DNA of 64,000 bases from Sphingomonas sp. (GTDB lineage: Bacteria > Pseudomonadota > Alphaproteobacteria > Sphingomonadales > Sphingomonadaceae): the NCBI GenBank assembly GCA_051954635.1, contig JBQCHO010000109.1, positions 10,411 to 74,410 on the forward strand, given 5' to 3'. The notes under the pieces are model-generated. The model ran no database searches. It was not told the origin of the DNA and saw nothing but the letters and a program-made list of their open reading frames with translations. Below are positions 16,345 through 40,172 of the stretch, piece after piece (within the stretch, counting starts at the first letter, position 1; the number at the start of each line of letters is the position of its first letter). Position numbers and translations under genes: made by a program.

Positions 16345-16351
16345 GGGCCGG

Positions 16352-17374: not shown

Positions 17375-17408
17375 GCGCGCCTGCTGGCGCGAGCTAGGAT
17401 CTGCACAG

Positions 17409-17429
17409 TGCACTGCTCGTCCCAGTGCA
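17409..17429. terminator. Hairpin between convergent genes (weak candidate terminator)
   Basis: TGCACTG (17409-17415) pairs with CAGTGCA (17423-17429). It overlaps the palindrome CAGTGCACTG (17406-17415). A T-run follows only after ~11 nt. Confidence 0.3.
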
Positions 17430-17480
17430 GTACCATTACGTTTTGGCGGGGCTTTTCTGCGCTACGGTCGGCATCGGCGC

Positions 17481-19058: not shown

Positions 19059-19061
19059 GTC

Positions 19062-19811
19062 CTACCCCATAGCAGCAGACGGCACGGGCTCACACTTCGG
19101 ATTGAGGTGATGGAGATAGGAGGGGTTGAACATCGCGATGCGGTGCAGTGCCGGAAGGTCCGGGATTGTCAGGATGCGGTTGTTGAGGGCGATGAGATTT
19201 TCGCGCCTGAGTTCCTGGAGCGTCCGGTTTACATGGACGGCGGTCATGCCCGTCGCTTCGGCCAGGTCGATCTGGGTGAGCGGCATTTCGCAGCGATCAT
19301 CCTCGGTCAGATGAACCGAATCCAGCCGCTCGAATAGTTCGGAGAACAGATGCGCGATCCGTTCGCGTGCGGTTCTCTGACCCAGGCTGACGGTCCATTC
19401 GCGCTGGATCGCGGCAACGACGAGACTCTCCATCCATAAAGCCCGCGAGATGGCAGGCCGGTGGGTGCACATATGCTCGACCAGATTTCGCGGCATCTCG
19501 GCGTAGGTAACCGGCGTCAGCGCACAGATCGAGTGATCCATTTCGTCGAGGAGGAAGACGTTCAAATCGCACAAGTCGCCGGGGAGGAGAAACGAGACGA
19601 TCTGGCGACGACCGTCGGGAAGCATCTTGTAGCGAAACGCCCAGCCGTCGACGACCAATTTGACGTGATGCGGCGTATCACCCTCGCGTATCAAATCTCG
19701 ACGTGCGCGCGCAGTGCGAACCGTCTGTCGGCAGATTTGAGCTATTGCATCCAGGTCGGCCTGGGAGAGCGGCGCGAACCGTTGCAGCTTCAAGGCCAGC
19801 AGGTCGTGCAA
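19062..19811 (-). CDS. Crp/Fnr-family transcriptional regulator
   Basis: A cNMP-binding-like N-terminal domain and a C-terminal HTH (LTQIDLAEATGMTAVHVNRTLQELR). Only 3 nt separate it from the downstream kinase gene. Confidence 0.85.
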   Translation of the reverse strand: MHDLLALKLQRFAPLSQADLDAIAQICRQTVRTARARRDLIREGDTPHHVKLVVDGWAFRYKMLPDGRRQIVSFLLPGDLCDLNVFLLDEMDHSICALTPVTYAEMPRNLVEHMCTHRPAISRALWMESLVVAAIQREWTVSLGQRTARERIAHLFSELFERLDSVHLTEDDRCEMPLTQIDLAEATGMTAVHVNRTLQELRRENLIALNNRILTIPDLPALHRIAMFNPSYLHHLNPKCEPVPSAAMG

Positions 19812-19941
19812 ATCTCATCTCCGCGCTCAGTTCTCGGGAACAAAACGCCTGACACTGAACTTGGTCGCTCACTTATGTTATTCGACGCAGGGCCAGCCAG
19901 TTTGTATCCGTCTCGTCCACCTCGCGGGGGCTCGACACCAG

Positions 19942-20364
19942 ATGAACCAACCACTTGCCATTGCTGGTAGCACGGTCCTACTCGTCGAAGACGAGTATCT
20001 GATCGCCGACGATCTAGCTCGCGATCTGACGGCGCATGGACTCACCGTTTTCGGTCCCGTGGCAACCGTCGAAGCGGCGGTCGAAGCGCTCGCGCAGAGC
20101 AACCCGGATTTTGCGATTCTCGACATCAACCTGCGCGGAGACCGCGTCTTCCCGCTTGCCGACCATCTGTCGGGGCGCGACATTCCTTATGTCTTCGCCA
20201 CCGGCTATGACGGCGACGCCATTCCGCCGCGGTTCGCAGATGTCGCGCGGCTCGAGAAACCGATCAGGACAGGCGACCTTCTCGTCACGCTCGAGAATCT
20301 CAGTTGCCGGTCGAGCGGATCGCCCACTCCCGAAATCCCCCCGCTGGGCGATCATCGCCACTGA
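19942..20364 (+). CDS. Single-domain response regulator of the FATGUY (PFxFATGY, SdrG/MrrA-like) family
   Basis: Receiver features VLLVEDEYLIADD and FAILDINL (phospho-Asp), with IPYVFATGY matching the PFxFATG[G/Y] signature. No output domain. Confidence 0.8.
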   Translation: MNQPLAIAGSTVLLVEDEYLIADDLARDLTAHGLTVFGPVATVEAAVEALAQSNPDFAILDINLRGDRVFPLADHLSGRDIPYVFATGYDGDAIPPRFADVARLEKPIRTGDLLVTLENLSCRSSGSPTPEIPPLGDHRH

Positions 20365-20419
20365 AGTTTTCGATTGATTGGATAAATGCCGTCACCTCGT
20401 CGCAAACTCGGCGAGGCGT

Positions 20420-20444
20420 GGAACATGCCCGCTTTCCAGCGGTT
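20420..20444 (+). promoter_or_regulatory. Near-consensus sigma-EcfG-type promoter candidate
   Basis: GGAAC-N16-GGTT, with one mismatch in the -10 compared with CGTT. It lies upstream of the small ORF/SRPBCC/ADH/SDR gene string. Confidence 0.3.
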
Positions 20445-20514
20445 GGCTAGCAATCGCGATGACCCGATATTCGCGGTTGAAATCCAGCAACATAGATTAG
20501 TGGGCAGGTGTGCG

Positions 20515-20703
20515 ATGGACGATGGAAAGAGGCTCGGCGAAGGCGGCGCAAAGGATCGACGTTCATCCTTGCGAGACGGTGATGATGATCCCGCGTTGCG
20601 CCACGAAAGTCGCCAGGCAGTTCTGAACCAGGGCAGCGCGACCCCTGAGGACTATCCCGATCGCGGCGTGTCGACACCGGCTGCGCCAGATGGAGATCGG
20701 TGA
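20515..20703 (+). CDS. Possible small acidic/hydrophilic protein (62 aa)
   Basis: Internal ATG of ORF 20386-20703, downstream of the promoter-like motif. The stop overlaps the next gene's start. No homology recognised. Confidence 0.3.
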   Translation: MDDGKRLGEGGAKDRRSSLRDGDDDPALRHESRQAVLNQGSATPEDYPDRGVSTPAAPDGDR

Positions 20704-21245
20704 TGACACAGACAGATGACGCACCCGCCCATGTCGCAAAATCCGATGACGTCCGGGCGGCGGTTGGCGAAGGCTCGGTCACCGGGCACACCGAAACCAT
20801 CAACCGCCCGCGTAAAGAACTTTATGCATTCTGGCGAAATTTCTCGAACCTTGCTGGTCTGATGGAGAATGTCGTCTCGGTGACCGAGATAGATGGCAAG
20901 CGTTCTCACTGGGTGGTTGCAGGCCCGACAGGCAATCTCGAATGGGATGCCGAGATCACCGAAGATGAGCCCGATCGGCTCATCGCGTGGCGATCGGTAA
21001 AAGGCGCGGATGTCGAACATTCGGGTCGGGTCGAATTCCGCGACGCTCCGCCAGGGCGCGGATCGTGGATCACCGCGACGATCGCCTACAAGCCTCCGGC
21101 GGGTTTTATCGGCAAGGCCGTCGCCAAGGTCACGCAGAAGGAGCCCGCCATACAGGCACGGCGAGACCTTCGCCGGTTCAAGCAATATTGCGAAACCGGC
21201 GAAATCGCGACGTCGACCCCGCCCAATCCCCAACCGAAATCCTGA
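20703..21245 (+). CDS. SRPBCC-family (cyclase/dehydrase-like) protein
   Basis: INRPRKELYAFWRNFSNLAGLMENVVSV...WRSVKGADVEHSGRVEFRDAPPGRG is typical of the SRPBCC/polyketide-cyclase fold family. Confidence 0.75.
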   Translation: MTQTDDAPAHVAKSDDVRAAVGEGSVTGHTETINRPRKELYAFWRNFSNLAGLMENVVSVTEIDGKRSHWVVAGPTGNLEWDAEITEDEPDRLIAWRSVKGADVEHSGRVEFRDAPPGRGSWITATIAYKPPAGFIGKAVAKVTQKEPAIQARRDLRRFKQYCETGEIATSTPPNPQPKS

Positions 21246-21257
21246 AGGAGTCCGGCT

Positions 21258-22439
21258 ATGCGTGCGCTCACCTGGCACGGCAAGCACGACGTCCGCGTCG
21301 ACAGCCATCCCGATCCCGAAATCATCAACCCCCGCGACGCGATCATCAAGGTCACCTCGACCGCGATCTGCGGTTCCGACCTCCATCTGTACGATGCCTA
21401 TATTCCAACCCTCGAAAAGGGCGATATTCTGGGCCACGAGTTCATGGGCGAGGTTGTCGATGTCGGGCCCGGCAGCTCACTCAAAAAGGGCCAGCGGGTC
21501 GTGGTTCCGTTCACCATTTCGTGCGGGAAATGCTTCTTTTGCGAGAAGCAGCAGTTTTCAGCCTGTGCGAATTCGATTCCCGCCGATAATGCCGATCTTG
21601 GGCAGGAACTCTACGGTCACCCCATGACCGGCCTGTTCGGCTATTCGCACCTGACCGGCGGCTATCCGGGCGGTCAGGCTGAATATGCTCGCGTTCCCTA
21701 TTCGGACATCGGGCCGATCGTTATTCCAGACGGGCTCGACGATGATACGGTGTTGTTTCTTTCCGATATCCTCCCGACGGGCTGGATGGCTGCGGAGAAT
21801 TGCGACATCGAGCCTGGCGACACGGTCGCGGTATGGGGCTGCGGTCCGGTCGGCCTGTTCGCTGTACAATCGGCGTTCAAGCTCGGGGCTCACCGCGTAA
21901 TTGCTGTCGACCATTTCCCACATCGGCTCGATCTCGCCAAGCGCTTCGGCGCCGAGACGATCAATTACAAGGAAACCGACACCTATCATGCGCTGATGGA
22001 GATGACTGGCGGCATCGGCCCCGACGCCTGCATCGATGCAGTTGGACTCGAGAGCCACGGCTTCTTTCTCGACAATGTCTGGGACCAGGTGAAGGTCTCG
22101 ACCTTCATGGGTACAGACCGCGCTCATGTTCTTCGCCAGGTCATTATTGCCTGTCGCAAGGGCGGACGAGTTTCCCTGCCTGGCGTTTATGGCGGCTTCG
22201 TCGACAAGTTCCCGATCGGTGCGCTGATGGAGAAGGGGCTGCAGGTGAAGAGCGGTCAGACCCATGTGCAGAAATATCTGCCCAAGCTTCTGAAGATGAT
22301 CGGTGAGGGCGAGCTCGACACCACCTTCCTGATCTCGCACCGGCTGCCGCTCGAAGAAGCGCCCAAGGGCTACGAAATGTTCAAGAACGAACAGAACGAA
22401 TGCACCAAAGTCGTGCTGAAACCGGGGATGGCGGCCTGA
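21258..22439 (+). CDS. Zinc-dependent alcohol dehydrogenase (glutathione-independent formaldehyde dehydrogenase-like)
   Basis: [14 protein letters not shown], structural-zinc Cys cluster ([15 protein letters not shown]) and GCGPVG Rossmann motif. AAGGAG RBS. Confidence 0.9.
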
Positions 22440-22456
22440 CCCTAAGGAGAGCGACA

Positions 22457-23230
22457 ATGCCCGATAAACTTGCAGTAATCACCGGCGCTTCGACCGGCAT
22501 CGGCAGAGAAATTGCCAAGCTCGCAGCGCAAGACGGTTTCGATCTCATCACCGTTGCCGACGAGCCGGGACTCGAAGCGGCAGCCGCCGACCTTCGCGCC
22601 GAGGGTGGGCAGATCGAGACGGTCGAAGCCGATTTGGCGACGTTCGAGGGCAATGACGCGCTGCTCGCCGCGATCGGCGACAGGAATGTGGATATCCTGG
22701 TCGCCAATGCCGGACGCGGCCTCGGCCATGCATTTATCGATCAGGACCCGGCGGACTGGCGCCACGTCATCGACACGAATGTCACCGGAACGACCTATCT
22801 GCTGCAGAAAATCGCCCGGAAGATGGTCCAGCAGAGAGGCGGTAAGATCCTTATCACGGGCTCGATCGCCGGATTGATTCCCGGCAGCTTCCAGGCCGTC
22901 TACAATGCGACCAAGGCTTACCTCGACAGCTTCTCCTACGCGCTGCGCGAGGAACTCAAAGATACCGGCGTATCGGTCACCGTGCTCATGCCCGGGCTGA
23001 CTGAGACCGAGTTCTTTCGCCGGGCCGGGATGCTCGACACGCCCGTCGGCGAAGACGAGAAAGCCGATCCTGCGAAGGTCGCCGCCGATGGCTGGAAAGC
23101 AATGAACGACGGTTCCGCCCATATCGTCTCGGGCTTCCAGAACAAGCTGCAGGCAGCGTTGTCGCACATCACGCCGGATACGATCTTGGCGAAAATGCAT
23201 AGCAGATTGGCAGACCCGCAGCGCGGCTGA
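22457..23230 (+). CDS. SDR-family oxidoreductase
   Basis: TGASTGIGRE, NAG and YNATKAY motifs. Internal ATG of ORF 22400-23230, preceded by AAGGAGAG. Confidence 0.85.
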   Translation: MPDKLAVITGASTGIGREIAKLAAQDGFDLITVADEPGLEAAAADLRAEGGQIETVEADLATFEGNDALLAAIGDRNVDILVANAGRGLGHAFIDQDPADWRHVIDTNVTGTTYLLQKIARKMVQQRGGKILITGSIAGLIPGSFQAVYNATKAYLDSFSYALREELKDTGVSVTVLMPGLTETEFFRRAGMLDTPVGEDEKADPAKVAADGWKAMNDGSAHIVSGFQNKLQAALSHITPDTILAKMHSRLADPQRG

Positions 23231-23791
23231 TCAGTCGCTATTTTGCCACTCAGCAAGAGAACGTGAATTGGCGGCACCCGTATCTGCGCCAAAGCTGTTG
23301 CGCATGATCTCGAGCGCCCAGCGTGTGCGTTCGGGGTGCTCGCCGGCCACCGCGTCCTCGGGCACCCACAGACGGTACTCGCGCATATGCGCATCGGCGG
23401 CAGTGAAGAGGACGCAAATGTCGGCGGCAATTCCGGTCAGGATTAGTCGGTCGACGCCCAGGCGCGGCAGAAGTGCTGGAAGCGTCGTTGCGTAAAATCC
23501 GGAGACCTGTGGTTTGATGACCAGATAATCGCAGCGGCGTGGCTGAAGCGCGCGCGCGATCGCCGCTCCCGGGGCATCGCTCTTCGTGACGTGTGCGAGA
23601 AGATCGTCGCGATCGGCTCGCCACGCGCCATAGTGGTCGTTGACATACACTACGGGCGCGCCCGCCGCATCGGCCTGGTCGCGCAACTCCGAAATGGGCG
23701 CTACTATGGTTTCAGCTGATTGCAGGAGCGGCGCTGCACCCTCGAAGTCCAGCGGATTGATCGCATCGATGATGAGCAGTACCACCGCCAT
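23231..23791 (-). CDS. Isochorismatase-family cysteine hydrolase
   Basis: VLLIIDAINPLDFEG..., VVYVNDHYG and ILTGIAADICVLFTA (catalytic Cys context). Confidence 0.85.
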   Translation of the reverse strand: MAVVLLIIDAINPLDFEGAAPLLQSAETIVAPISELRDQADAAGAPVVYVNDHYGAWRADRDDLLAHVTKSDAPGAAIARALQPRRCDYLVIKPQVSGFYATTLPALLPRLGVDRLILTGIAADICVLFTAADAHMREYRLWVPEDAVAGEHPERTRWALEIMRNSFGADTGAANSRSLAEWQNSD

Positions 23792-23979
23792 GGTCGTTCT
23801 CGTTATCGTTTAGCCCGCAGCAAAGGGTGAACCTATCGGGCAAGCGATCACAAATGTAAGGAAAGCTGGCAAAGTGGCAATCGGCTATGGTGTCGCGCTG
23901 GACCCATTGGGGTTATCGCCACGTCTTGTTCGGGGAGGAGCCGCCGGTGTCCAAAAAAAACCGGTCGCCGGACATCTTG

Positions 23980-24290
23980 CGGATCTTTCCACGATCAATC
24001 GCTTGACATGATGGCGACCGTTTCGTCCGACGACTTGACCTCGCGCAGCGTCAATCCGGCGTTCGAGCGGATCCTTCGGCTCGACTGAAGACACTTTGCT
24101 GGGGCGCACCTTCGTCGAGTTTGTCCATCCTGACGAGCGCGACGATCTTGGCATAGCGATCGCGGCGATCGACAGAAGAAACAATCCGATCGGCGTCGAG
24201 CACCGACCTGTCGCATCGATGCGCCTACCGCCGGGCTGCGTGGTTATGGCGCGGGCCGCGTCGGCTATGCCGAGGACTTGAGTGACGGGA
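23980..24290 (+). pseudogene. Degraded PAS-domain sensor fragment (multiple frame changes)
   Basis: VNPAFERIL, then a stop at 24086, then in another frame LLGRTFVEFVHPDERDD...GVEHR, then a further shift (AYRRAAWLW). No kinase or output domain follows. Confidence 0.4.
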
Positions 24291-24902
24291 ACCCACGTCG
24301 AACTGCTACGCGACTGGACCGACGGCGCCCCGAGCATTTGTCGGCGTTTATCGATATTCTGACAACGGCGCGGAACTATGCAGGCGCTGTTGGCGGGTCG
24401 CCCATGTGTACGTCCCGATATTCAGCGCGGCAAGATGATGACTGAGGCCGAAAAGTCTTCCCAGGCGGCGGTCGGTCTCTGTGCGACACTGAACATTCCG
24501 CCGGTCAAGCAGGGTCAGTCGGTAGCGATTTTGGCGGTCAACTGCGCCGGGGCCCCACACCTGCAGCGACAACGAGATCGCGCTTGTCGAGGCTCCCGCC
24601 GAACGAACCTCGCCGGCAGTCGAGCGAGCTTGAGCCGAGACAGCGCTCAGGACAAATGGGGTCAAGTATCGCGACCTCTTCAATTTCATGGACCAGGGTT
24701 ATCATCCAGCTTTTGTAGATGATGGCCGAGCGACCGCCTTGCAGGCCGCACTGACCGCGGGCCGAATGGCAATGCGTCCATAGCGCTAACAAGACAAAAC
24801 GCGCTCACATGGGTTAGCCGCTTCATTCGCTGCCCCCGAAACGACCGAGTAAATCCGCCAAAATTTTTCAAATCAGCCGGCATTTCTCGGGTCGGCGACC
24901 GC

Positions 24903-24927
24903 GGAACGGCGGCGGGGCGTACCCGTT
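24903..24927 (+). promoter_or_regulatory. Perfect sigma-EcfG-type (general stress response) promoter motif
   Basis: GGAAC (24903-24907), 16 nt, CGTT (24924-24927). It is followed by AGGAG and the ATG at 24947. Confidence 0.55.
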
Positions 24928-24946
24928 GCTAGGTCCAGGAGACCGT

Positions 24947-25249
24947 ATGACCGACAAACAGAATTACAAAGATCTTCCCCCCGAAGCTGGGGTAAAGCCC
25001 CGCTATACCGAGCCCGATCCGCCGCCCGGAGAAGTCGGCGCGCACGGCCATTATTCTGGACAGGAATATGACGCTCCTGGCCAGGCGGAGTGGCGCAGAA
25101 AGGCTGACAGGTCGCCGCCGCCCGGTGAGTTGAGCGGATCAGGCATCGGCGCCGGCGGCGGACAGGATGGCGAGGACTATGACAGCGATCCGCAAGGTGG
25201 CAGCGGCGTCCTGCCGGCTGCTGGAACGGGGTCAAAAGGGGAAGCCTGA
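24947..25249 (+). CDS. Small hydrophilic Gly/Pro/Asp-rich protein (100 aa)
   Basis: AGGAGA lies 5 nt upstream of the ATG, directly downstream of the EcfG-type motif. Predicted disordered and charged. No family recognised. Confidence 0.5.
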   Translation: MTDKQNYKDLPPEAGVKPRYTEPDPPPGEVGAHGHYSGQEYDAPGQAEWRRKADRSPPPGELSGSGIGAGGGQDGEDYDSDPQGGSGVLPAAGTGSKGEA

Positions 25250-25325
25250 TTTTTGCCGTGACCTCGCTGCGCTTTCGTGAGGGCGGCAGTGGACGGTGTC
25301 TCGATACCTACGCGACCGGGGAACC

Positions 25326-26873
25326 ATGCCAATGGGTCTGCTGCAGCCCCAGCTCATCATCGACGCCGCCGAACGCGAGCGGGGGTTGCGACTCCTGGTC
25401 AATGAGGCTTTGTTTTCGGGCGGGGCAGCAGCACTCACGACGGGCACCATCCTCACAGCCTTTGCTCTGCATCTCGACGCTTCGAACGTTATGATCGGAC
25501 TGCTCGCAAGCGTCCCGTTTGCAGCGCAGCTATTGCAGCTTCCAGCCATTCTGCTGGTTGAGCGGACTCGTCGTCGCAAGCTGATCGCAGTCCTGACCAG
25601 CATCATCGGCCGGCTGATGCTGGGCGTCATGGCCGTCACGGCGTTCTTGAAAGGCTCCTTTGCTCTTGCTCTCTTTCTGGGGGCGCAATTCATCCTCGCC
25701 GGGCTCGGTGCAATCGGCAGCTGCGCCTGGAACGCTTGGTTACGCGATCTCGCGCCAATAGAGCGTCTTGGCGTCGTGTTTGCCCGTCGCACGATGTGGC
25801 TGACTGCAGTGAACCTGGCATTGGGCCTCGCGGCTGCGCTTGCGCTGGCTCTGTCGCCCGAAGGGTCGATCGCTCGCAGCTGGGTTTTTGCCGGCATGTT
25901 CGCGATCGGTTGCCTGACGGGATTGATCAGTGCCCGAATAGTCTCCCAGATGCCCGAACCGCTGATGGCGCCTGCCGAAGGGCCGTTGCACCTCGCGGCG
26001 CTGTTGCGCCGCCCGCTGGGCGACGCCAATTTCAGGCGACTGCTTGCGTTCGTCGCGAGCTGGCAATTCGCGGTCAATCTGGCGACGCCGTTCTTCACTG
26101 TCTTCATCGTTCGCCAACTCGGGTTCGACGTGTCGTTCGTCATGATCCTGAGCGTCGTCAGTCAGGCTGCAAATATCCTCGCCCTTCGCCTCTGGGGCCG
26201 GCTCAGCGACCGGTTTGCGAACAAATCGGTGATGGCAGTCTGCGCTCCGGCTTATATTTTCTCGATCGTCGCGATGATCGGCGCATCGCAAATCCAGTCC
26301 CGGCTCGGGATCATGATCTGGCTGGGCGCGCTTCACGTCGCGATGGGCGTGTCGGTCGCGGGGGTCACGCTAGGGTCGACCAATATCGCGTTGAAACTAT
26401 CACCCAGCGGGTCGGCTACATCCTATGTCGCGGCCAATGCGATGGCGACCGCCGCGGCCGCCGGCTTGGCCCCGATCCTCGGTGGGTTGCTCGCGCAGTT
26501 CTTTGCTCAGCGGCGCTTTGAATTGCTGATGCGCTGGGCGGGACCGCACGGCTTGCTGAGCTTTTCCTTCGGCCTGACCCATTGGGATTTCTATTTTCTG
26601 TTGGCCGGCGTGATCGGCCTTTACGCGGTCCACCGCCTCTCTCTGGTCGCCGAACAGGGAGAAATCGAACGACGCGAAATGGTCAACCAGATGCTCGGCG
26701 AGACTCGCCGCACGATCCGCAATATCTCGACCGTAGCTGGCCTGCGCGCAGCGACCGATTTGCCGGCTACGCTGCTGCGCGATGCCCGCAAACGACTGCG
26801 TCGGCGTCTCCCAACGGCGCCGCGCTCCAACCGTCACCTATCGACACCGGCAAAAAAGGAGGAGCATCAATGA
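25326..26873 (+). CDS. MFS transporter
   Basis: About 12 hydrophobic segments with the MFS-like loop LLVERTRRRK, and a cytoplasmic C-terminal tail. An alternative GTG start is at 25296. Confidence 0.8.
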   Translation: MPMGLLQPQLIIDAAERERGLRLLVNEALFSGGAAALTTGTILTAFALHLDASNVMIGLLASVPFAAQLLQLPAILLVERTRRRKLIAVLTSIIGRLMLGVMAVTAFLKGSFALALFLGAQFILAGLGAIGSCAWNAWLRDLAPIERLGVVFARRTMWLTAVNLALGLAAALALALSPEGSIARSWVFAGMFAIGCLTGLISARIVSQMPEPLMAPAEGPLHLAALLRRPLGDANFRRLLAFVASWQFAVNLATPFFTVFIVRQLGFDVSFVMILSVVSQAANILALRLWGRLSDRFANKSVMAVCAPAYIFSIVAMIGASQIQSRLGIMIWLGALHVAMGVSVAGVTLGSTNIALKLSPSGSATSYVAANAMATAAAAGLAPILGGLLAQFFAQRRFELLMRWAGPHGLLSFSFGLTHWDFYFLLAGVIGLYAVHRLSLVAEQGEIERREMVNQMLGETRRTIRNISTVAGLRAATDLPATLLRDARKRLRRRLPTAPRSNRHLSTPAKKEEHQ

Positions 26874-29125
26874 CGACCACCGCACAAGCAGAGCGCAGCG
26901 ACGCTTCCGGCAACCGCAAGGCAGAAGCAAAAAACGCGGCAACTGCAAGTCTTTATGTGCTGGCACTGCGCCAGGAGCTGGCAAATGGGCTGAAGCATAT
27001 CGGCAGTCTGTCGATCGGCGATCATCGTATCGAAGTCGCAGGCGGAGACGACTCGCTGTGGGCGATCATCCGGCGGCCCGGTCGCGGTGGTCTCGCGGTG
27101 CGCGCAGCTTTTGCCCCCGGTGGTTTTCGCGAGCTGAGCAAAGGGCGCTGCGACAACAGCAGGTTCGAGCTCGAATGCATCAGCGCGCTCGGCCGCCATC
27201 ATCTCTGCTTCGACGCGGGCGGTGCCGACGTGCGCCGATTTCACCTGCAAGCTTGGCTGACGCCGTCGCATGCCATGCTCGTTCCCTTTGCGCCGCGCGA
27301 CCTGTACCCATTAGACAGCAACGACGACCCTCTGGCGGCGACCGGTCGCGTCGAGGCTGCGCAGCGCGGTCCGAATTCGGGGCTTATCTACTTTTCGATC
27401 GACGATCCGGCGTTCGGACACGTCCTCTATTTCCAGGACCTCACCAATCTCAACCCGTACTTCCGCGCGACCGATACGACGCCGATGGGCGCCGTCGGCG
27501 GCGAATGGCCGGAGCTTGGTTATCTGCCGCCGACGCCACCGCAAAGCGGAACGCCGCCGGTTCGACCGTTACCTGCAAATCGAAAGACGATGCTCTCCGA
27601 CGCGGTCATCGTCCTGCGCGACGAAGCTGCGGCAAGTGAAGTCGAAAAGGCGCAGCAATTCATTCAGATGCTCGGCGTCGCGTACAAAACGATACAGCTT
27701 CCAAAGATCGAGTATCGCGATTGGGTCGGACGGGCGGATCAGACGCTAGCCGATCTCGGCAGCGCCTCGAGTGCAACATGCCGAGCTTATGGGCACCGCT
27801 ATATTCGTCCCTACACCGATGCGGAATATCCCGACAGCATGGTGCAGATGACGCTGATTGCCTCGCTCCACGACTTCGCGTCTTGGAGCGGTCGCGACGT
27901 GCCGCTGCTGGGCGAACTCGCTGCTGGAATGTCAAAATTCTACGATAGGCGGTTGAAGACGCTGCGGCGCTATTTGCCAAATGTCGGCAAGGACAAGAAC
28001 GCGAATGCGGTCGATTCCTGGTACCTGCTTCACCCCTTGCGTAACCTCGCTCGGCTTGCGCTCGCCGGCGAGCAATGGGCCAAGCGACTCCTGTTGCGCT
28101 CGATCGAATTTCCGATCCGGTCTGCGCACCATTTCAACTATATTTGGCCCATTCAATATGATGTCCGCGACTTTTCGGTGATCACCGAAACCCGCGGGGA
28201 CGAGGAACATGGTCAGACCGATGTCGGTGGCTTCTATGCTTTTGTCATGTTGCAAATGTTCGAGCTTACCGAAGATGACCGGTATCTAAATGAAGCGCGT
28301 GCGGCGATCGACGCTGCGATGGGTATGCGCTTCGAGCTCGAATATCAGGCCAATCTGACGGCTTGGGGGGCGGCAGCGTGCCTCCGCTTATGGCGCATTA
28401 CCAACGACGAACGGTACCGCGATCAGAGCTATGCTTATCTCGCGAGCTTCTTCCATAATTGCGAAATTTGGGAGTCCGAAATTAAAGCGGCTGAACATTA
28501 CAGCAATTTTCTTGGCGCGACCGCACTCCACGATTCTCCTTACATGGCGATGTACGAATGCTTCGACAGCTTTGCGGCGTTTGAACACCTCCTGCGCGAT
28601 TGCGGTCCAGAGATTGAACCCGCTGCGCGGATGCTGGTCAGCGAATACTGCAAATATGTACTGTACCGCGCCTGGTTCTATTATCCAGACGCTCTTCCAG
28701 CGGGCATCCTGGCCGATGAAATCCGCAACGGATTTATCGATCGCAAGCTGTCGTTCCCGCTCGAGGATCTCTATGCAGATGGCAGCCCTCCTGGGCGGGT
28801 CGGGCAGGAGATTTACGGCGCGGGAGCGCCCTTTATCTTCGCGTCGCGCGCCTTCCATACGATCGATGAGGCACCTTTCCTATTATTCTGTAATCATTTT
28901 ATATTAAGCAAAGAACGGACCGGCGAACGGGCGGTTAGCGTGCAGCTGACCGGCGGCGAAACGTGTATGGCATTGCTCGCCGTGATCCGGACCGGGCGAA
29001 AAAAGCTGCCGACGGTCACGCTCGTTGCACCCGACGGCGACCAATTCCGACCGAGCTGCGTCGCAGAAGACCGTATCGAGTTTCGCGTACCTGCTGATGC
29101 CCGCGTCGTTCTGAACTGGCATTGA
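26870..29125 (+). CDS. Large cytoplasmic protein of unknown function (751 aa)
   Basis: AAGGAGGAG RBS and ATGA overlap with the MFS stop. No signal peptide, TM segment or P-loop. Aromatic-rich helical segments. The ORF is long and uninterrupted in its frame. Confidence 0.8.
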   Translation: MTTTAQAERSDASGNRKAEAKNAATASLYVLALRQELANGLKHIGSLSIGDHRIEVAGGDDSLWAIIRRPGRGGLAVRAAFAPGGFRELSKGRCDNSRFELECISALGRHHLCFDAGGADVRRFHLQAWLTPSHAMLVPFAPRDLYPLDSNDDPLAATGRVEAAQRGPNSGLIYFSIDDPAFGHVLYFQDLTNLNPYFRATDTTPMGAVGGEWPELGYLPPTPPQSGTPPVRPLPANRKTMLSDAVIVLRDEAAASEVEKAQQFIQMLGVAYKTIQLPKIEYRDWVGRADQTLADLGSASSATCRAYGHRYIRPYTDAEYPDSMVQMTLIASLHDFASWSGRDVPLLGELAAGMSKFYDRRLKTLRRYLPNVGKDKNANAVDSWYLLHPLRNLARLALAGEQWAKRLLLRSIEFPIRSAHHFNYIWPIQYDVRDFSVITETRGDEEHGQTDVGGFYAFVMLQMFELTEDDRYLNEARAAIDAAMGMRFELEYQANLTAWGAAACLRLWRITNDERYRDQSYAYLASFFHNCEIWESEIKAAEHYSNFLGATALHDSPYMAMYECFDSFAAFEHLLRDCGPEIEPAARMLVSEYCKYVLYRAWFYYPDALPAGILADEIRNGFIDRKLSFPLEDLYADGSPPGRVGQEIYGAGAPFIFASRAFHTIDEAPFLLFCNHFILSKERTGERAVSVQLTGGETCMALLAVIRTGRKKLPTVTLVAPDGDQFRPSCVAEDRIEFRVPADARVVLNWH

Positions 29126-29351
29126 CGGTGGGCGTGCTTCGACCCTCCAAGGGGTTTGCCTCGCTCGGGATGATCGCCCCCGCTCGGCAGAGTTCTGGGC
29201 CGCCACGAGCTCAGTGTCGGGTGCGTAGCCGCCCTTCGCTCGCGAACTGTCTGCTTGTAGGCGATGGTGCCGAAGATCGCCGAAACATCCGCTCGCACCA
29301 CCCCATCACGATGCCGGGTGCAGACGCTCGCCATTCACGGAGCGGTTGCTA

Positions 29352-30398
29352 ATGGTCCGGACGAACCAGTTGCTGCCAGACGAAGCACGACCGATGGAGG
29401 CAAAACTCGTCGGCGAGCTGCCGCAAACCGGGCAATTGCAATTTGAACCGAAATGGGATGGCTTCCGAGCACTGGTTGCGCGCGACGGCGATACCGTCGA
29501 GATCCGCTCGAAGTCTGGCAAATCGCTGGCGCGCTTCTTTCCTGAAATCGTCACGATGGTTCTGGAGCTACCGAAGCGACGTTTCGTCGTCGATGGCGAG
29601 CTTCTCCTTCCGATCGGACCGACACTTTCATTCGACGCTCTGCAACAACGGCTTCATCCCGCAGCGAGCCGCATTGCCCGACTGTCGCGTGAAACGCCTG
29701 CTGAGTTCATGATGTTCGATTGCCTGGCCGTCGACAACGATGACTTGACCGGGGCGTCGCTTATCGAGCGTCGGCACAGCCTCGAGGCCTTTTTCGCCAA
29801 GTGTTGCCGACCGGGGCTCCGGCTATCGCCCAAGACCGAAGATCCGGCGGTCGCGCTTCAATGGCTTGCTAGCAGTGGCGGCGCGCTCGATGGAATCGTC
29901 GCAAAGCGGCTGGAGGAACACTACAAATTCGGTGAGCGTGCAATGCTCAAGCTCAAGCTGCAGCGGACTGCCGACTGCGTCCTAGGCGGTTTCAGGCGAT
30001 CGAAGGAGGGGAAGGTGGTCTCGCTGCTCCTCGGGCTCTTCAACGAACAGGGGCATCTCGACCATGTCGGCTTTTGCTCGGCCTTTGGCGAGGTCGATAT
30101 GGCGGCCCTTAGCCTCAAGCTAGCGAAGAACGCCGGCGGCGCAGGCTTCACCGGTAAGACGCCGGGTGGCCCTAGTCGCTGGAACGGTGGGCGCGAAAAG
30201 CCCTGGGAGCCCTTACAGCCGCAGTTGGTCGTCGAAGTTTCCTACGACCAGGTGACCGGGCAAAGATTTCGCCATGGCACTCGGTTCCTTCGCTGGCGTC
30301 CCGACAAGGCGCCCGCTCAATGTACCGTTGACCAGCTCGAGCACGAGATGCGCCCTGCAGAAATGAAGGGTCTGCTCGAGGCAAGCTCTAGTATCTAA
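29352..30398 (+). CDS. ATP-dependent DNA ligase (stand-alone LigC/LigD-ligase-domain type)
   Basis: Adenylation motif I FEPKWDGFRAL (KxDG), then EGIVAK-like DGIVAKR, KLK and an OB-fold C-terminus (RFLRWRPDK). Confidence 0.85.
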   Translation: MVRTNQLLPDEARPMEAKLVGELPQTGQLQFEPKWDGFRALVARDGDTVEIRSKSGKSLARFFPEIVTMVLELPKRRFVVDGELLLPIGPTLSFDALQQRLHPAASRIARLSRETPAEFMMFDCLAVDNDDLTGASLIERRHSLEAFFAKCCRPGLRLSPKTEDPAVALQWLASSGGALDGIVAKRLEEHYKFGERAMLKLKLQRTADCVLGGFRRSKEGKVVSLLLGLFNEQGHLDHVGFCSAFGEVDMAALSLKLAKNAGGAGFTGKTPGGPSRWNGGREKPWEPLQPQLVVEVSYDQVTGQRFRHGTRFLRWRPDKAPAQCTVDQLEHEMRPAEMKGLLEASSSI

Positions 30399-30432
30399 CC
30401 TCCAAGGACTTGTCCGCCGCAGGAGACTCAAT

Positions 30433-30458
30433 GGCACTGTAGCGACCATTCAAGCGTT
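30433..30458 (+). promoter_or_regulatory. Near-consensus sigma-EcfG-type promoter candidate
   Basis: GGCAC-N17-CGTT (one -35 mismatch), ~30 nt upstream of the GTG at 30489. Confidence 0.3.
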
Positions 30459-30488
30459 ATCCTCTCTCCAGTTAGATCGGAGTTTGCA

Positions 30489-30899
30489 GTGGGTAGCGCA
30501 TTCACCAGGATTGCGACGCGAAGCGCGAACCTAATGGGCCAGCCTATGGCGTTCTCGATCGCGGTGTTCGCATGCCTGATATGGGGAGTAACCGGCCCGG
30601 CCTTCCACTACTCCGACACTTGGCAACTCGTGATCAACACCGGCACAACGGTGCTGACGTTTCTGGCCGTGTTCCTCATTCAGAACGCCCAAAACCGAGA
30701 CGGCGCAGCAATTCAGGCGAAGCTCGACGAGTTGATGCGCGCTATTCCCAAGGCACGTCCCACTTTCATCGGCATCGAGCATCTTACCGACGCCGAAATT
30801 TGCGCAATCCGCGATGCGCTCGAGCGCGAAGCCGGCGGCGGGGCGCCGACCGCAAAATCGGCTGACAAGAGTGTGGACGAGCTGCTTGAACGGCGGTGA
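30489..30899 (+). CDS. Low-affinity iron permease family protein
   Basis: Two TM segments followed by IQNAQNRDGAAIQAKLDELMRA, the characteristic motif of this small family. Confidence 0.75.
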   Translation: MGSAFTRIATRSANLMGQPMAFSIAVFACLIWGVTGPAFHYSDTWQLVINTGTTVLTFLAVFLIQNAQNRDGAAIQAKLDELMRAIPKARPTFIGIEHLTDAEICAIRDALEREAGGGAPTAKSADKSVDELLERR

Positions 30900-31018
30900 T
30901 CAGGCGGTCGAGGACCTGCCGGCCTAGATATGGACCGGATTGGACAATTCGCTGAGCCATGCGAGTTTTCTCGTCTTGAGCCGCGGTGATTTGACGCTGC
31001 TGCGTCAGTCCAGAGCGG

Positions 31019-31273
31019 TTGCGCCATTTTAATGTCATTTCTGAGCGGCGCGCCTATGATCATTGTGTGACCGGAGAACGCACGACGATCGAACGCGCTA
31101 TCGAACTCGCCAAAAGCGGAAGCTGCGCGACTATCAACGATATACGCAAAGCGCTCAGAGCCGAGCGCTTTGACGCCGTCGATGCGAACCTCAGCGGTCA
31201 TTTTACCAAACACCAATTGAACGGCCTGATAAATGAAGCTCGCCGCAGCGCAGGCGATATCGGTCGCGATTGA
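31019..31273 (+). CDS. Hypothetical small protein
   Basis: ORF with a plausible GTG start at 31067 (VTGERTTIERAIELAKSG...). It resembles small conserved alphaproteobacterial hypotheticals from memory only. Confidence 0.35.
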   Translation: MRHFNVISERRAYDHCVTGERTTIERAIELAKSGSCATINDIRKALRAERFDAVDANLSGHFTKHQLNGLINEARRSAGDIGRD

Positions 31274-31416
31274 GACGATTTCGACAGGCTTATCGCGCGC
31301 GCCCGTCGGTGGAGTAGGCGCCGCGTCTTCGTCAGCCTCATAAGCTTAATGTCGATTGCAACGATTTGGCGCAACTCGGAAAAACCATTGCGCGTTGTTG
31401 CTTCTGGAGATGACCC

Positions 31417-31611
31417 ATGCCGGACCGAATGAACAAGCCACTCAACGTCGCGATTGAAGCCGACGACGTGTTTATCGATGGTCCGGCGGGGATAGTGGCA
31501 CACCTCAGCGCCGATGCCGCTCTCGAAACAGCCGAGAAGTTGAACGATGGCGCAGCGAAGGCTCTTGGGCATCGGCATATCGCAGCTTCGATCCGCAAGC
31601 CTCCTGTCTAG
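31417..31611 (+). CDS. Hypothetical small protein (64 aa)
   Basis: ORF with an ATG start and protein-like composition. No family recognised. Confidence 0.3.
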   Translation: MPDRMNKPLNVAIEADDVFIDGPAGIVAHLSADAALETAEKLNDGAAKALGHRHIAASIRKPPV

Positions 31612-31623
31612 CTTCCGCGTCGC

Positions 31624-32122
31624 GTGAATGCCCAAGAGCTCAAGTTCACGAAGACCTATGCTGCGTCGATTTTACTCGGCTTGGTCGTGGGCCAGAGATC
31701 GATGACGCCGCTCGCCGCAATTGCGGGGACGGCACGTCATGGCTCGTTGCCCTATGACAATCCCGCTGCCCGCCTGATGCCGCATTCGCTGCCCGCCGCG
31801 GGAGGTATAATGCTTGCTGCAGGCGAAGTCGCGGGCGATAAGATGAAGAACTTACCCGGTCGCACGGTCGCGCCCGGACTGATCGCCCGTGATCATGGGC
31901 AGTTTTGCAAGGGCCGCGATGGTGCCGCCAAAGCGACAGGCGGTCGGCGCGGTACTCGGCCTCGGCGCGGGGCTGACGTCTTCATTCTTGGCATTCGCCC
32001 CCCGTAAACGCGCGATCAGGCGCTGGGGCCAGACGCTAACCGGCTTCGCTGAGGGCGCGATCACGACAGGTGCAGCCAACGCGATCGCTCACGCTAGACT
32101 GTCTGGCGGCGCGAGCGCTTGA
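31624..32122 (+). pseudogene. DUF4126-like membrane protein, frameshifted
   Basis: Two overlapping ORFs (31624-32007 and 31889-32122) together read like one DUF4126 protein (GQRSMTPLAA...AGEVAGDKMKNLPGRTVAPGLIAR / ...GAVLGLGAGLTSSF). The frame change is near 31880-31890. Confidence 0.45.
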
Positions 32123-32217
32123 GTTGCCGTGTTCGTCGCGCGTACGGCAATTTGCGAGAGAAGCGGGTCATTTGCGCTGATAGGCGGCACCAATCGCGCC
32201 GACGCGCATTTGCATGC

Positions 32218-33897
32218 ATGATGCCGTGCACAATCGCTTTCGTCGGCGCTGGTCCGACGACAATCTATACGTTGCGCGCCTTCGTGGCGAACGCTGCCGG
32301 CCCGGCGAGCGTCACGATCTTCGAACGACAGCCACGCGCAGGCCTTGGCACGCCGTATCGGCCCGGGTGGAACGATCCGGCGATGCTCTCCAACATCGCC
32401 AGCATCGAGATCCCGCCGATCGAGGAGTCTCTGATCGCTTGGCTGGAGCGACAGCCCCGTGCGCGGTTGATCCGTCTCGGAATCGATCCCGACACGATAG
32501 ACGAACATGCTTTTTATCCGCGTCTCGCCCTTGGTGAATACTTCCTCGATCAATTCAACGCGCTGATCGACCGCGCCCGGGCGCTGGGCATCGAAGTCGC
32601 CGTCATCGCCAGTTCCGGTGTCGCTGATATCCGTGCTGTCGATGCTGGCTTTACGTTGACGGTGGAACGCGCAAATTCCCAGCCGGTCGAGCAAACCTTC
32701 GATCAGGTCGTTCTGGCGACCGGTCATCAATGGCCCGAGGATCCGGAGGCGCAGCCCGGCTACTTTCTCAGCCCGTGGCCCGCGAGTGCATTGCGGCGCA
32801 TCCCCGCCGACCAGATCGGCATCCGGGGCAGCTCGCTGACGGCGATTGACGCGGCGGTGGCGCTCGCTTGCGCCAACGGTACCTTTATTGAGACGGATGG
32901 CCAGTCACTAACTTACCGCCTCAACCCAGGTGCCGAGGCGCTGCATATGACGATGATGTCGCGCAAGGGGCTGCTGCCTGAAGCCGACTTCTTCCATCCG
33001 GTGCCTTATGAGCCACTGGCGATCTGCACGCCCGAGGCAATCGACAAGCTAATTGCTGACGAGTCCGACAAATTGCTCGAGCACGCTTTCGATTTATTCA
33101 AGGCGGAGCTGGCGCGCGACGATCCCACCTATGCCAAACAGGTATGTCTCGAAGATCTCGTGATCGAAGACTTTGCCGATCGGTATTTTGCCGATCGTGT
33201 CGCCGCTGACCCGTTCGACTGGGCGGTGGCCAATCTCGACGAGGCGCGTACCAATTTCGAACGCGCGTTCACCGTGCCATGGCGTTATGCGATCCTGCGC
33301 ATGCATGAGGTTTTGGCGCTGATCACGCCGCATCTCGACGAGGATGCGCTGCAACGCTTCAACCAATTTCTTAAGCCGGTGTTCGTCGACGAATATGCGA
33401 CAGTGCCGCACCTCTCGATCGAGCGCCTCCTTGCCTTGCATCGCGCCGGCGTTCTCGACGTCACGGCTCTCGGCGAGGATTACCGGATCGATACCCGCAG
33501 CGTCGAGCGGGGTGCGTTGGTAATAGTCGATGGGGAGCGACGACATTTCTCCGTCTTTATCGACGCTACCGGACAGCGGCCGCTCGCGATCGACAAATTC
33601 CCCTTCCAGACACTCATTGACCAGGGCGTCGTTCTTGATGCCGCGAGCGGAGAGGGGGAGGGGCCCAAGGGGGTCGAAGTTGATGATTGCTACCACCCTG
33701 TGTCGGCCCACGAAACCGCCGGCAATCTCTACTGTTTGAGCATCCCGTTCATCCTCGGTCGCCATCCCTTCATCCAAGGTATCACGAGCTCGTACGAAAT
33801 GGGCGAGGTTGTGGGCGCCGAGATTGCGGCGATGGCAGCAATGCCAGTGCAGCAAGGTGGCCTCGAGGGCGCGGATTGGACGGACAATTGCAAATGA
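32218..33897 (+). CDS. FAD/NAD(P)-binding domain protein (COG4529-like)
   Basis: N-terminal dinucleotide-binding motif IAFVGAGPTTIY and a second GSSLTAIDAA motif. Internal ATG of ORF 32119-33897. Confidence 0.8.
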   Translation: MMPCTIAFVGAGPTTIYTLRAFVANAAGPASVTIFERQPRAGLGTPYRPGWNDPAMLSNIASIEIPPIEESLIAWLERQPRARLIRLGIDPDTIDEHAFYPRLALGEYFLDQFNALIDRARALGIEVAVIASSGVADIRAVDAGFTLTVERANSQPVEQTFDQVVLATGHQWPEDPEAQPGYFLSPWPASALRRIPADQIGIRGSSLTAIDAAVALACANGTFIETDGQSLTYRLNPGAEALHMTMMSRKGLLPEADFFHPVPYEPLAICTPEAIDKLIADESDKLLEHAFDLFKAELARDDPTYAKQVCLEDLVIEDFADRYFADRVAADPFDWAVANLDEARTNFERAFTVPWRYAILRMHEVLALITPHLDEDALQRFNQFLKPVFVDEYATVPHLSIERLLALHRAGVLDVTALGEDYRIDTRSVERGALVIVDGERRHFSVFIDATGQRPLAIDKFPFQTLIDQGVVLDAASGEGEGPKGVEVDDCYHPVSAHETAGNLYCLSIPFILGRHPFIQGITSSYEMGEVVGAEIAAMAAMPVQQGGLEGADWTDNCK

Positions 33898-34024
33898 AGT
33901 TGTTCGCGATCTGCGTCCGTAGCGTGCCGATGTGCTGACCGCTGAATGCTAGACGGTAGCTAAGCTGATGTGACTTTCGCGGCATACCAATCGGCGTAAG
34001 GCGTATTCCTGATCATGTGCCGGT

Positions 34025-36538: not shown

Positions 36539-36563
36539 GGAACATCGCCGCTTTCCTCCCGTT
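36539..36563 (+). promoter_or_regulatory. Perfect sigma-EcfG-type promoter motif
   Basis: GGAAC (36539-36543), 16 nt, CGTT (36560-36563). It lies 70 nt upstream of the ATG at 36633. Confidence 0.55.
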
Positions 36564-37656: not shown

Positions 37657-37736
37657 CGTAATAGGCAGGCCGGGTTGCATTTCGCAACGCATCTGCCATA
37701 CCCGAAACTCGAAAATAAAATTTGGGAGAGTCGCTC

Positions 37737-38729: not shown

Positions 38730-38759
38730 TCGAACCGCACGCTTGCAAACCGATTACGC

Positions 38760-40160: not shown

Positions 40161-40172
40161 GGATTTCAGTCC

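Follow-up and report, generated by a model that had tools for sequence, protein, structure and literature searches.

The locus considered here raises the question of what a protein of 751 amino acids (aa), encoded directly behind a transporter gene and matching no named family, could do in the cell. The gene, called T below, lies in a stretch of 64,000 nucleotides (nt) from Sphingomonas sp. (assembly GCA_051954635.1, contig JBQCHO010000109.1, positions 10,411 to 74,410 of the forward strand); this whole 64-kb stretch is referred to as the window. T is predicted, with considerable confidence, to be a carbohydrate-active six-hairpin enzyme. The narrower prediction, a six-hairpin glycoside hydrolase or phosphorylase of a new family tied to beta-mannoside metabolism, stands in even balance. 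The fold class is known; the T family itself is new, and no curated model, solved structure or paper was found for it in the literature searched.

The gene and its sequence family

The gene and its translation start are as follows.

26870..29125, forward strand: gene T, 751 codons open to the stop; product putatively cytoplasmic, three domains, member of an unnamed six-hairpin family
26856..26864, forward strand: Shine-Dalgarno sequence of T, AAGGAGGAG, 5 nt upstream of the ATG

A reading made from the sequence alone (the sequence-only reading) had described a long uninterrupted open reading frame (ORF) with a strong ribosome-binding site, and both are present: 751 codons run to the stop, and AAGGAGGAG stands 5 nt before the ATG. 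The start codon overlaps the TGA of an upstream gene (25296..26873) for a 525-aa transporter of the major facilitator superfamily (MFS) as ATGA, an overlap of 4 nt. T is a real gene and no chance ORF, because full-length homologues occur at 25-74% identity in several phyla and 15 columns of their alignment are invariant. The GC content had been described as lower than that of the surroundings. It is 0.586, against 0.59-0.64 in neighbouring genes and 0.642 in the whole window; at third codon positions (GC3) it is 0.66, against 0.68-0.77 in neighbouring genes and 0.87 in the core genes at 37-43 kb. This is a genuine though modest drop, and it lies within a broader low-GC3 stretch at about 15-34 kb. 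The same reading saw no signal peptide, transmembrane segment, Walker A motif or Cys cluster, and this agrees with the protein. Scans for Walker A and CxxC motifs found neither, the N-terminus is charged, disordered and not signal-like, and no transmembrane segment is assigned, because the highest 19-residue Kyte-Doolittle mean is only 1.49.

The protein had also been said to belong to no recognizable family, with a confident match to a characterized family named as the result that would overturn this. Profile and structure searches were run for such a match, and none was found. Against Pfam-A (2025) and NCBIfam (2026), T has zero matches at E ≤ 1; among PDB sequences the best match is only a 62-residue helical hairpin of a GH76 enzyme (E = 0.011). 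Fifty-one diverse relatives, searched against Pfam-A and NCBIfam, give only weak GH88 (PF07470, best E 1e-3) and C5-epim_C matches, each in 4 of the 51 (GH88 not in T itself), and accessory domains (a weak CBM96 match, tails of the type IX secretion system, T9SS) on a few long or distant members. A profile of these relatives finds in the PDB only a generic hairpin motif of about 60 residues in LanCL1/2 and GH76, the GH76 chains at E 0.05-0.5 over about 25 residues. No characterized family among those compared in Pfam-A, NCBIfam and the PDB claims the T family. A literature search for a characterized T homologue, or for a cluster of GH130, short-chain dehydrogenase/reductase (SDR) and unknown protein, returned nothing relevant.

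The family is large and widely distributed. A word-indexed search, in which 8,000 candidates were scored, gave at least 1,625 clusters at 90% identity, all unnamed or 'hypothetical', and an exhaustive HMMER search gave 704 clusters at 50% identity, 255 of these at E ≤ 1e-30. Relatives occur in 303 stretches of a species-representative genome collection. Plasmid records add Asticcacaulis (Caulobacterales) and Spirosoma (Bacteroidota), and a metagenome scan seeded with a distant clade adds 540 further loci, mostly of low GC. Sphingomonas sp. JC676 carries two T paralogues about 18 kb apart on one contig (L010 and L031); one is preceded by GH130 and SDR genes on the minus strand, and the other is followed by ZnADH-lactonase-SDR-GH130 (ZnADH, zinc-dependent alcohol dehydrogenase).

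Predicted fold and candidate active-site residues

An AlphaFold model of T, built with a 43-sequence alignment, has a pLDDT of 88.3 and a pTM of 0.90. DSSP assignment on this model gives three domains.

26987..27619, forward strand: N-terminal beta-sandwich (residues ~40-250), with invariant Y187 and near-invariant Q165 and Q189
27638..28852, forward strand: (alpha/alpha)6 barrel of 12-13 helices (residues ~257-661)
28853..29119, forward strand: C-terminal beta-sandwich (residues ~662-750)

An alpha/alpha-toroid fold of carbohydrate-active or lyase type had been proposed from the texture of the sequence, and the model bears it out: it contains a 12-helix barrel whose listed Foldseek matches are six-hairpin enzymes. 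Helical segments rich in W, Y and F had been placed in the C-terminal two-thirds. The richness is real (W+Y+F makes up 14% of residues 251-665 and about 7% of both flanking domains; the three peptides cited start at residues 382, 453 and 495), but the position has to be corrected: the helices occupy the middle of the sequence, because the last 90 residues are beta.

Foldseek comparison with the PDB gave 127 matches at E ≤ 1e-3 for the full-length model and 87 for the barrel only, and the best 50 of each were listed. All 50 listed barrel-only matches are six-hairpin enzymes, and so are the listed full-length matches except three (the tail protein of SSV19, TEP1r and complement C5). At 8-13% identity the listed matches include D-mannose isomerase, YihS, AGE, GH76, GH88, GH127, GH81, GH94, GH95, GH116, GH133 and the lyase BACCELL_00875. 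A barrel-only AlphaFold model (pLDDT 84) finds the same superfamily-level relatives as the full-length model, with best TM-scores of 0.51-0.57 and a root-mean-square deviation (rmsd) of 6-7 Å for GH76 mannanases, mannose isomerase, epimerases and GH88. Judged on the model, the structural similarity of T is at the level of the superfamily, not of the family. The best full-length E-value belongs to 7xdi_F, the tail protein of the archaeal virus SSV19 (4.9e-9, TMt 0.50), presumably a six-hairpin glycanase-like tail component. The alpha-2-macroglobulin/TEP matches were judged to be a generic resemblance of beta-sandwich plus barrel.

The latter matches bear on the reading that T is not an enzyme at all: its six-hairpin domain, resembling LanC or the alpha-2-macroglobulin thioester domain, would then serve in binding or as a scaffold. 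The profile search does match LanCL1/2 over a 60-residue hairpin, and TEP1r and complement C5 are among the weak Foldseek matches. However, the matches span only the generic 'LTgDxxYL' hairpin motif, T has neither the CGEQ thioester motif nor a Zn-binding set of Cys and His, its invariant carboxylates and aromatics would lie at the canonical catalytic face, and the operon partners are metabolic enzymes. A non-enzymatic T is hardly credible.

Conservation was derived from an alignment of 51 sequences sharing 23-56% identity. Fifteen columns are invariant (Y187, G217, Y315, Q326, F357, D382, P427, E475, A476, Y492, E563, E632, G642, G645, Y649); D451, D633 and Q646 are 98% conserved, W384, Y385 and W534 at least 96%, and N495 90%. 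The sole His conserved at 75% or more is H388 (84%). Six-hairpin enzymes place the active site at the N-terminal ends of the inner helices. In T, conserved polar residues stand at the N-terminal ends of alternate barrel helices: Q326; D382-S-W-Y...H388; D451; Y492-Q-x-N495; Y558...E563; E632-D633; and Q646-E-x-Y649. They may cluster in the funnel of the barrel, and the carboxylates predicted to line it (D382, D451, E563, E632/D633) are candidate catalytic residues.

Gene neighbourhoods, partner enzymes and stress setting

Neighbourhoods were sampled 8-10 kb to either side of T homologues, and the Sphingomonadales counts below refer to 80 loci retained from the 303 stretches, almost all of them from this order. 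One type of SDR (T-type SDR), defined by orthology to the SDR of the Novosphingobium and Asticcacaulis loci, adjoins T in 28 of the 80 loci, directly downstream on the same strand in 25, and the stop and start codons of the two genes often overlap. One GH130 orthologue group (74-82% identity) lies within 4 kb of T in 19 loci. Two orders are repeated: T-SDR-GH130 and T-SDR-(ZnADH)-lactonase.

The transporter is a less general partner. Tight coupling of T to an MFS importer had been noted from the sequence alone, and action of T on the imported solute had been suggested. The coupling is supported by the 4-nt overlap and by closest relatives in which MFS precedes T; an MFS gene like that of the window (orthologues at 57-74% identity) stands beside T in about 10 of the 80 loci, and in about seven of these it precedes T immediately with the same orientation. 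The family-wide partners, however, are the SDR and GH130. The closest relatives of the window have the orders MFS-T-DUF892, MFS-T-SDR-ZnADH and T-SDR-lactonase-OYE. It is plausible that T acts on the solute carried by the MFS transporter.

Similar groupings are found on other replicons. A plasmid of Novosphingobium sp. P6W has overlapping genes for T, SDR and a 'glycosidase' beside Ku and Hsp20; an Asticcacaulis plasmid has GH130 on the minus strand followed by SDR-T; and a Spirosoma plasmid has T-GH130 with an SDR near. Across these three orders GH130 is 60-76% identical, T only 31-51%. Among 79 Bacteroidota-like metagenome loci the orthologous SDR adjoins T in 21, and GH130 is near in 16, in 10 of these divergent and directly upstream. 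The locus of a very distant cytoplasmic member (25% identity) reads DUF4142, T, overlapping SDR, then further ZnADH and DUF892.

Some distant members are secreted: they carry signal peptides, and some have a CBM96 (carbohydrate-binding module, CBM) or a T9SS tail, features also seen in extracellular glycanases. Their clusters have the order PorV, ABC sugar-binding protein, two permeases, unannotated gene, T-like gene, GH130, which looks like a polysaccharide-utilization locus. In L166, L167 and L169-L171 the secreted T-like proteins have 801-1183 aa, the unannotated neighbour 433-476 aa, and the phosphorylase is GH130_6-like; L166 and L167 have two T paralogues each.

The window itself contains three SDR genes (starting at 15487, 16352 and 22400) and a ZnADH gene (21258), which were rejected as the conserved partners at 26-33% identity. 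The SDR at 15487-16344 (forward strand) is 50% identical to an SDR (L084:3500-4507) on a T-bearing plasmid of Spirosoma oryzicola.

The GH130 partners belong to three lineages beside three T clades, and by sequence comparison each lineage is nearest to beta-1,2-mannoside phosphorylases. The Bacteroidota partner matches Uhgb_MS (E = 6e-155), a characterized beta-1,2-mannoside phosphorylase (PMC12814180). For the alphaproteobacterial partner the nearest match is Lin0857, a beta-1,2-mannobiose phosphorylase (E = 4e-23), and the score is 110 bits against an NCBIfam equivalog cut-off of 550; residues corresponding to Uhgb_MS R47 and E136 (beta-1,2 specificity), D137, R88 and the phosphate-binding R242 are retained in this partner, and its loop L2 differs. 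The GH130 that accompanies the secreted members has its nearest match in Teth514_1788, a 1,2-beta-oligomannan phosphorylase (E = 3e-59, GH130_6). The T-type SDR is a classical SDR whose nearest solved relatives are generic; Gly-Arg follows strand beta2, which we take to indicate a preference for NADP(H). The nearest matches of the partner ZnADH are a sorbitol dehydrogenase, a ketose reductase and an arabinitol dehydrogenase, and those of the partner lactonase are (phospho)gluconolactonases. All partners of T are, by homology, enzymes of sugar metabolism.

Lyase or hydrolase, SDR and MFS genes are typically grouped in uronate pathways. T could act on uronic-acid sugars, as a beta-eliminating lyase or as a GH88-like hydratase of unsaturated uronides, with the SDR reducing 4-deoxy-hexosulose uronate in the manner of DEH reductase or KduD/DhuD. 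GH88 and the three-domain lyase BACCELL_00875 (aligned over about 800 columns) are among the best Foldseek matches. The weak GH88 and C5-epim_C matches of relatives, the conservation of four Tyr plus Gln and Asn, and the weak CBM96 match in one distant homologue can be counted on the same side, the founding CBM96 member being a binder of alginate (PMC9971899). Nevertheless, kdgK, kdgA/eda, kduI and uxu are not among the recurrent neighbours in about 160 loci, the GH130 partners act on neutral beta-mannosides, which are incapable of beta-elimination, solved DEH/KduD reductases are not close among the top PDB matches of the T-type SDR, and three or four invariant carboxylates suit a hydrolase better. 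Action on uronates is unlikely.

An AGE-like role would also use the recurrent partners. As an aldose-ketose isomerase or 2-epimerase, for instance of mannose or mannobiose, T could convert mannose released by GH130 into fructose or glucose, from which the polyol dehydrogenase or the SDR would make a polyol osmoprotectant. The top barrel matches include D-mannose isomerase (5x32), YihS, cellobiose 2-epimerases and glucose 2-epimerase, the partners include a ZnADH like sorbitol dehydrogenase or ketose reductase and an NADP-type SDR, and mannan catabolism offers known cases in which an epimerase is paired with GH130. The AGE mechanism, however, uses a pair of essential catalytic His, and the family conserves one (H388); the reading was down-weighted for the lack of a pair. 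No GlcNAc_2-epim Pfam match occurs in T or 51 relatives, and additional beta-sandwiches and secreted paralogues with CBM or T9SS tail are foreign to monosaccharide isomerases. An isomerase is highly doubtful.

The operon of the window, in which T is the last gene, begins with the following features.

24903..24927, forward strand: EcfG-type promoter motif GGAACGGCGGCGGGGCGTACCCGTT (exact GGAAC-N16-17-CGTT), 20 nt before the next ATG; likely operon promoter
24947..25249, forward strand: 100-aa hydrophilic protein rich in Gly, Pro, Asp and Glu, ribosome-binding site AGGAGA, first gene behind the motif, no Pfam match
25296..26873, forward strand: MFS transporter, 525 aa (PF07690, E = 6e-21), about 12 hydrophobic segments, translationally coupled to T

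The 100-aa gene and the MFS gene are separated by 46 nt. No terminator-like site was seen in the intergenic gaps of the operon; the scan for sigma-70 promoters and terminators over 24.7-29.5 kb was uninformative. In tblastn, homologues of the 100-aa protein (50-53% identity) adjoin family members in two loci (L052, L064), which makes a stress protein of hydrophilin type a possibility.

In Sphingomonas melonis the EcfG motif is GGAAC-N17-20-GTT within 100 bp of a coding sequence, and among the members of the regulon are a Zn-ADH, Ku, a Crp-type protein, catalases and ferritin-like proteins (PMC6599016). Of the 80 loci, 20 have a copy of GGAAC-N17-18-GTT, which fits this definition, in the 300 nt upstream of T, where the remainder of these loci would predict 1.1; for the strict CGTT form the count is 7 against 0.33. 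The spacing between motif and coding sequence is short and constant in most copies. The motif in the window carries weight because of its position and this family-wide enrichment. Neighbours of stress type are found in both phyla (Mn catalase, DUF892 of YciE/F-like type, DUF4142). The sphingomonad loci add hemerythrin, KatE-like catalase, Crp-type regulators and HWE/PAS kinases, with Ku and Hsp20 on the Novosphingobium plasmid, and the Bacteroidota-like loci add CinA. This shared setting (Mn catalase, DUF892, DUF4142) gives a hint of a stress module that spans phyla, and stress-island gene content appears to be common to Alphaproteobacteria and Bacteroidota.

The window has further signs of this kind. 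A second EcfG-type motif, GGAACATGCCCGCTTTCCAGCGGTT (20420-20444, forward strand), lies about 70 nt before a 62-aa hydrophilic ORF (20515-20703), which overlaps an SRPBCC/polyketide-cyclase-like gene (20700-21245) followed by Zn-ADH (21258-22439) and SDR (22400-23230); these genes look like another general-stress operon. An exact GGAAC-N16-CGTT is present at 36539-36563 (forward strand), inside or opposite a 371-aa minus-strand ORF without a Pfam match. GC3 is 0.66-0.77 for the genes at about 15500-34000 and 0.87 for those at 37700-43350. The low-GC3 stretch holds an HWE/GAF/PAS histidine kinase (17481-19058, minus strand), a Crp-type regulator (19062-19811, minus strand), a receiver domain (19861-20364), three SDRs, an isochorismatase (23231-23791, minus strand), a LigC-type ATP-dependent DNA ligase (29346-30398) and a low-affinity iron permease (30489-30899). 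The whole stretch resembles a stress island and may have been acquired by horizontal transfer.

The stress setting gives room for a synthetic role. As a transglycosylase or phosphorylase, T could make a stress-protective beta-mannoside together with GH130 (by reverse phosphorolysis or as a weak GDP-Man transferase), to be kept in the cell or exported by the MFS transporter. The location in a stress island behind EcfG-type promoters would fit, as would the domain order, which is like that of GH65/GH94 phosphorylases (GH94 6ggy is among the listed matches). GH130 beta-1,2 enzymes make oligomannosides by reverse phosphorolysis and show transferase activity (PMC12814180). On the other hand, a bacterial beta-1,2-mannoside solute is not known, secreted members beside ABC importers point to degradation, and the SDR-lactonase arm looks catabolic. 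Synthesis by T is quite unlikely.

Proposed function and comparison with known systems

The favoured reading remains a bond-cleaving enzyme of beta-mannoside metabolism. T would be produced as part of the general stress response of Alphaproteobacteria, from the last gene of an apparent three-gene operon (hydrophilic small protein, MFS, T) behind an EcfG-type promoter, and would act on a solute carried by the MFS transporter. It would cleave a glycosidic bond by hydrolysis, possibly by phosphorolysis, and the probable substrate is a beta-mannoside-containing oligosaccharide or glycoside. In relatives, the products could be passed to the GH130 beta-1,2-mannoside phosphorylase, and/or to the NADP-type SDR and then to a polyol-type dehydrogenase or an aldonolactonase (aldose to lactone to aldonate). 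Secreted members would depolymerize an extracellular mannoside-containing glycan, the fragments being imported by the ABC system; for cytoplasmic members such as T, acting under stress, the substrate would be either transported or internal. Hydrolysis or phosphorolysis is favoured over beta-elimination because the partners act on neutral mannosides and several carboxylates are invariant; an isomerase is disfavoured because the His pair is lost and secreted CBM-bearing paralogues exist. The gene, the family, the modelled fold, the conserved residues, the gene neighbourhoods and the enrichment of the motif are direct results of the analysis. We infer the enzymatic activity, bond-cleaving chemistry, mannoside substrate, EcfG dependence and direction of transport from these sequence and model comparisons.

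Several points weigh against this reading. The chemistry is not fixed by structure, because the likeness is only at superfamily level (TM 0.5-0.57, rmsd 6-7 Å, 9-13% identity), and isomerases (AGE), hydratases (GH88) and a lyase (polysaccharide lyase family PL27) score as high as hydrolases. The active-site map is drawn from the periodicity of the sequence and a single short alignment. In about half of the loci sampled, T adjoins neither SDR nor GH130. In the 64-kb window tblastn finds no GH130 and no orthologue of the T-type SDR, so the mannoside link comes from relatives, and the direct evidence at this locus is the MFS coupling and the stress promoter only. The exact motif occurs twice in the window against 1.97 expected by chance, and an EcfG-type motif upstream of MFS was not found in the other MFS-T loci. 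A stress-regulon setting would also be unusual for a purely catabolic glycosidase.

If the favoured reading is true, the sequences collected here would be the founding set of a new CAZy-type family of more than 700 clusters at 50% identity, with two forms, one secreted and polysaccharide-degrading and the other cytoplasmic and stress-regulated. Gene order ties the family to beta-1,2-mannoside phosphorylases, about whose natural substrates in soil bacteria little is known, and T would be a candidate for the enzyme feeding them. For the general stress response of Alphaproteobacteria, a defined sugar pathway would stand out from the many EcfG targets labelled 'hypothetical'.

Among known six-hairpin enzymes, GH76 alpha-1,6-mannanases (6shd, 4v1s) are the best barrel match among those listed (TMq 0.53-0.57, TMt up to 0.66). 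GH76 is the sole PDB sequence match of T, with a hairpin motif common to both, and the active-site position falls at the start of the same helix. GH76 enzymes differ in being single-domain proteins of about 350-400 aa; T is 12% identical and without a Pfam GH76 match. D136 and D137 of GH76A (Asn-Asn in the 6y8f mutant) align to A494 and N495 of T in the sole alignable stretch, Y492-Q-A-N495. Membership of T in GH76 was rejected, because the catalytic Asp-Asp pair corresponds to Ala494-Asn495.

The AGE superfamily (5x32, YihS, cellobiose and glucose 2-epimerases) has an equally good (alpha/alpha)6 barrel (E ~1e-6, TM ~0.5), and its enzymes handle manno-configured sugars; T is unlike them in having no conserved His pair, no Pfam match and additional beta-sandwich domains. 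The unsaturated glycuronyl hydrolases GH88/GH105 have the barrel fold in common with T, and weak GH88 matches occur in some relatives (E ~1e-3); D382 and D451, invariant or near-invariant in the T family, could be counterparts of the GH88 catalytic Asp that hydrates the C4=C5 bond. T loci differ in their context: kdg, kdu and uxu genes, as expected beside a polysaccharide lyase of toroid plus beta-sandwich type (PL15, PL17, PL27 and others, which use a Tyr/His/Arg catalytic set), are absent from the recurrent neighbours in the roughly 160 loci.

Closest in domain order (beta-sandwich, barrel, with or without a C-terminal beta-sandwich) are PL27 BACCELL_00875, GH81, GH94 laminaribiose phosphorylase, GH95, GH116 and GH133. 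Foldseek aligns T with these multi-domain enzymes over 790-980 columns at E 1e-8 to 1e-5, but the global TM is only 0.17-0.32 (0.24-0.27 for PL27), with 8-11% identity and no profile match. GH65/GH94 phosphorylases are like T in architecture and size (751 aa in T; GH94 6ggy, E = 1.7e-6); this is a resemblance of architecture only, and no GH65 or GH94 profile of Pfam or NCBIfam matches T or 51 relatives.

A functional analogy is offered by beta-1,2-glucan metabolism, in which the endo-beta-1,2-glucanase SGL (GH144/GH162, (alpha/alpha)6) is paired with a 1,2-beta-oligoglucan phosphorylase (GH94). T and GH130 could form a comparable pair, and the secreted T-like version also has an ABC importer; unlike in the glucan pair, the phosphorylase on the T side is GH130, acting on mannosides. 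GH144 and GH162 are not among the 50 listed matches of either Foldseek search. A full-text literature search found no endo-beta-1,2-mannanase. In the most far-reaching reading, the enzymes still lacking for the breakdown of beta-1,2-mannan would be this family, as endo- or exo-beta-1,2-mannanases that make up a GH family of their own, and cytoplasmic EcfG-dependent members, with GH130, SDR and MFS, would form a stress-induced pathway that fills and empties an intracellular beta-1,2-mannoside pool. This is a long shot. Leishmania has a mannogen reserve that is recycled by GH130-related enzymes (PMC12814180), and a stress-induced beta-1,2-mannoside pool would be its bacterial counterpart.

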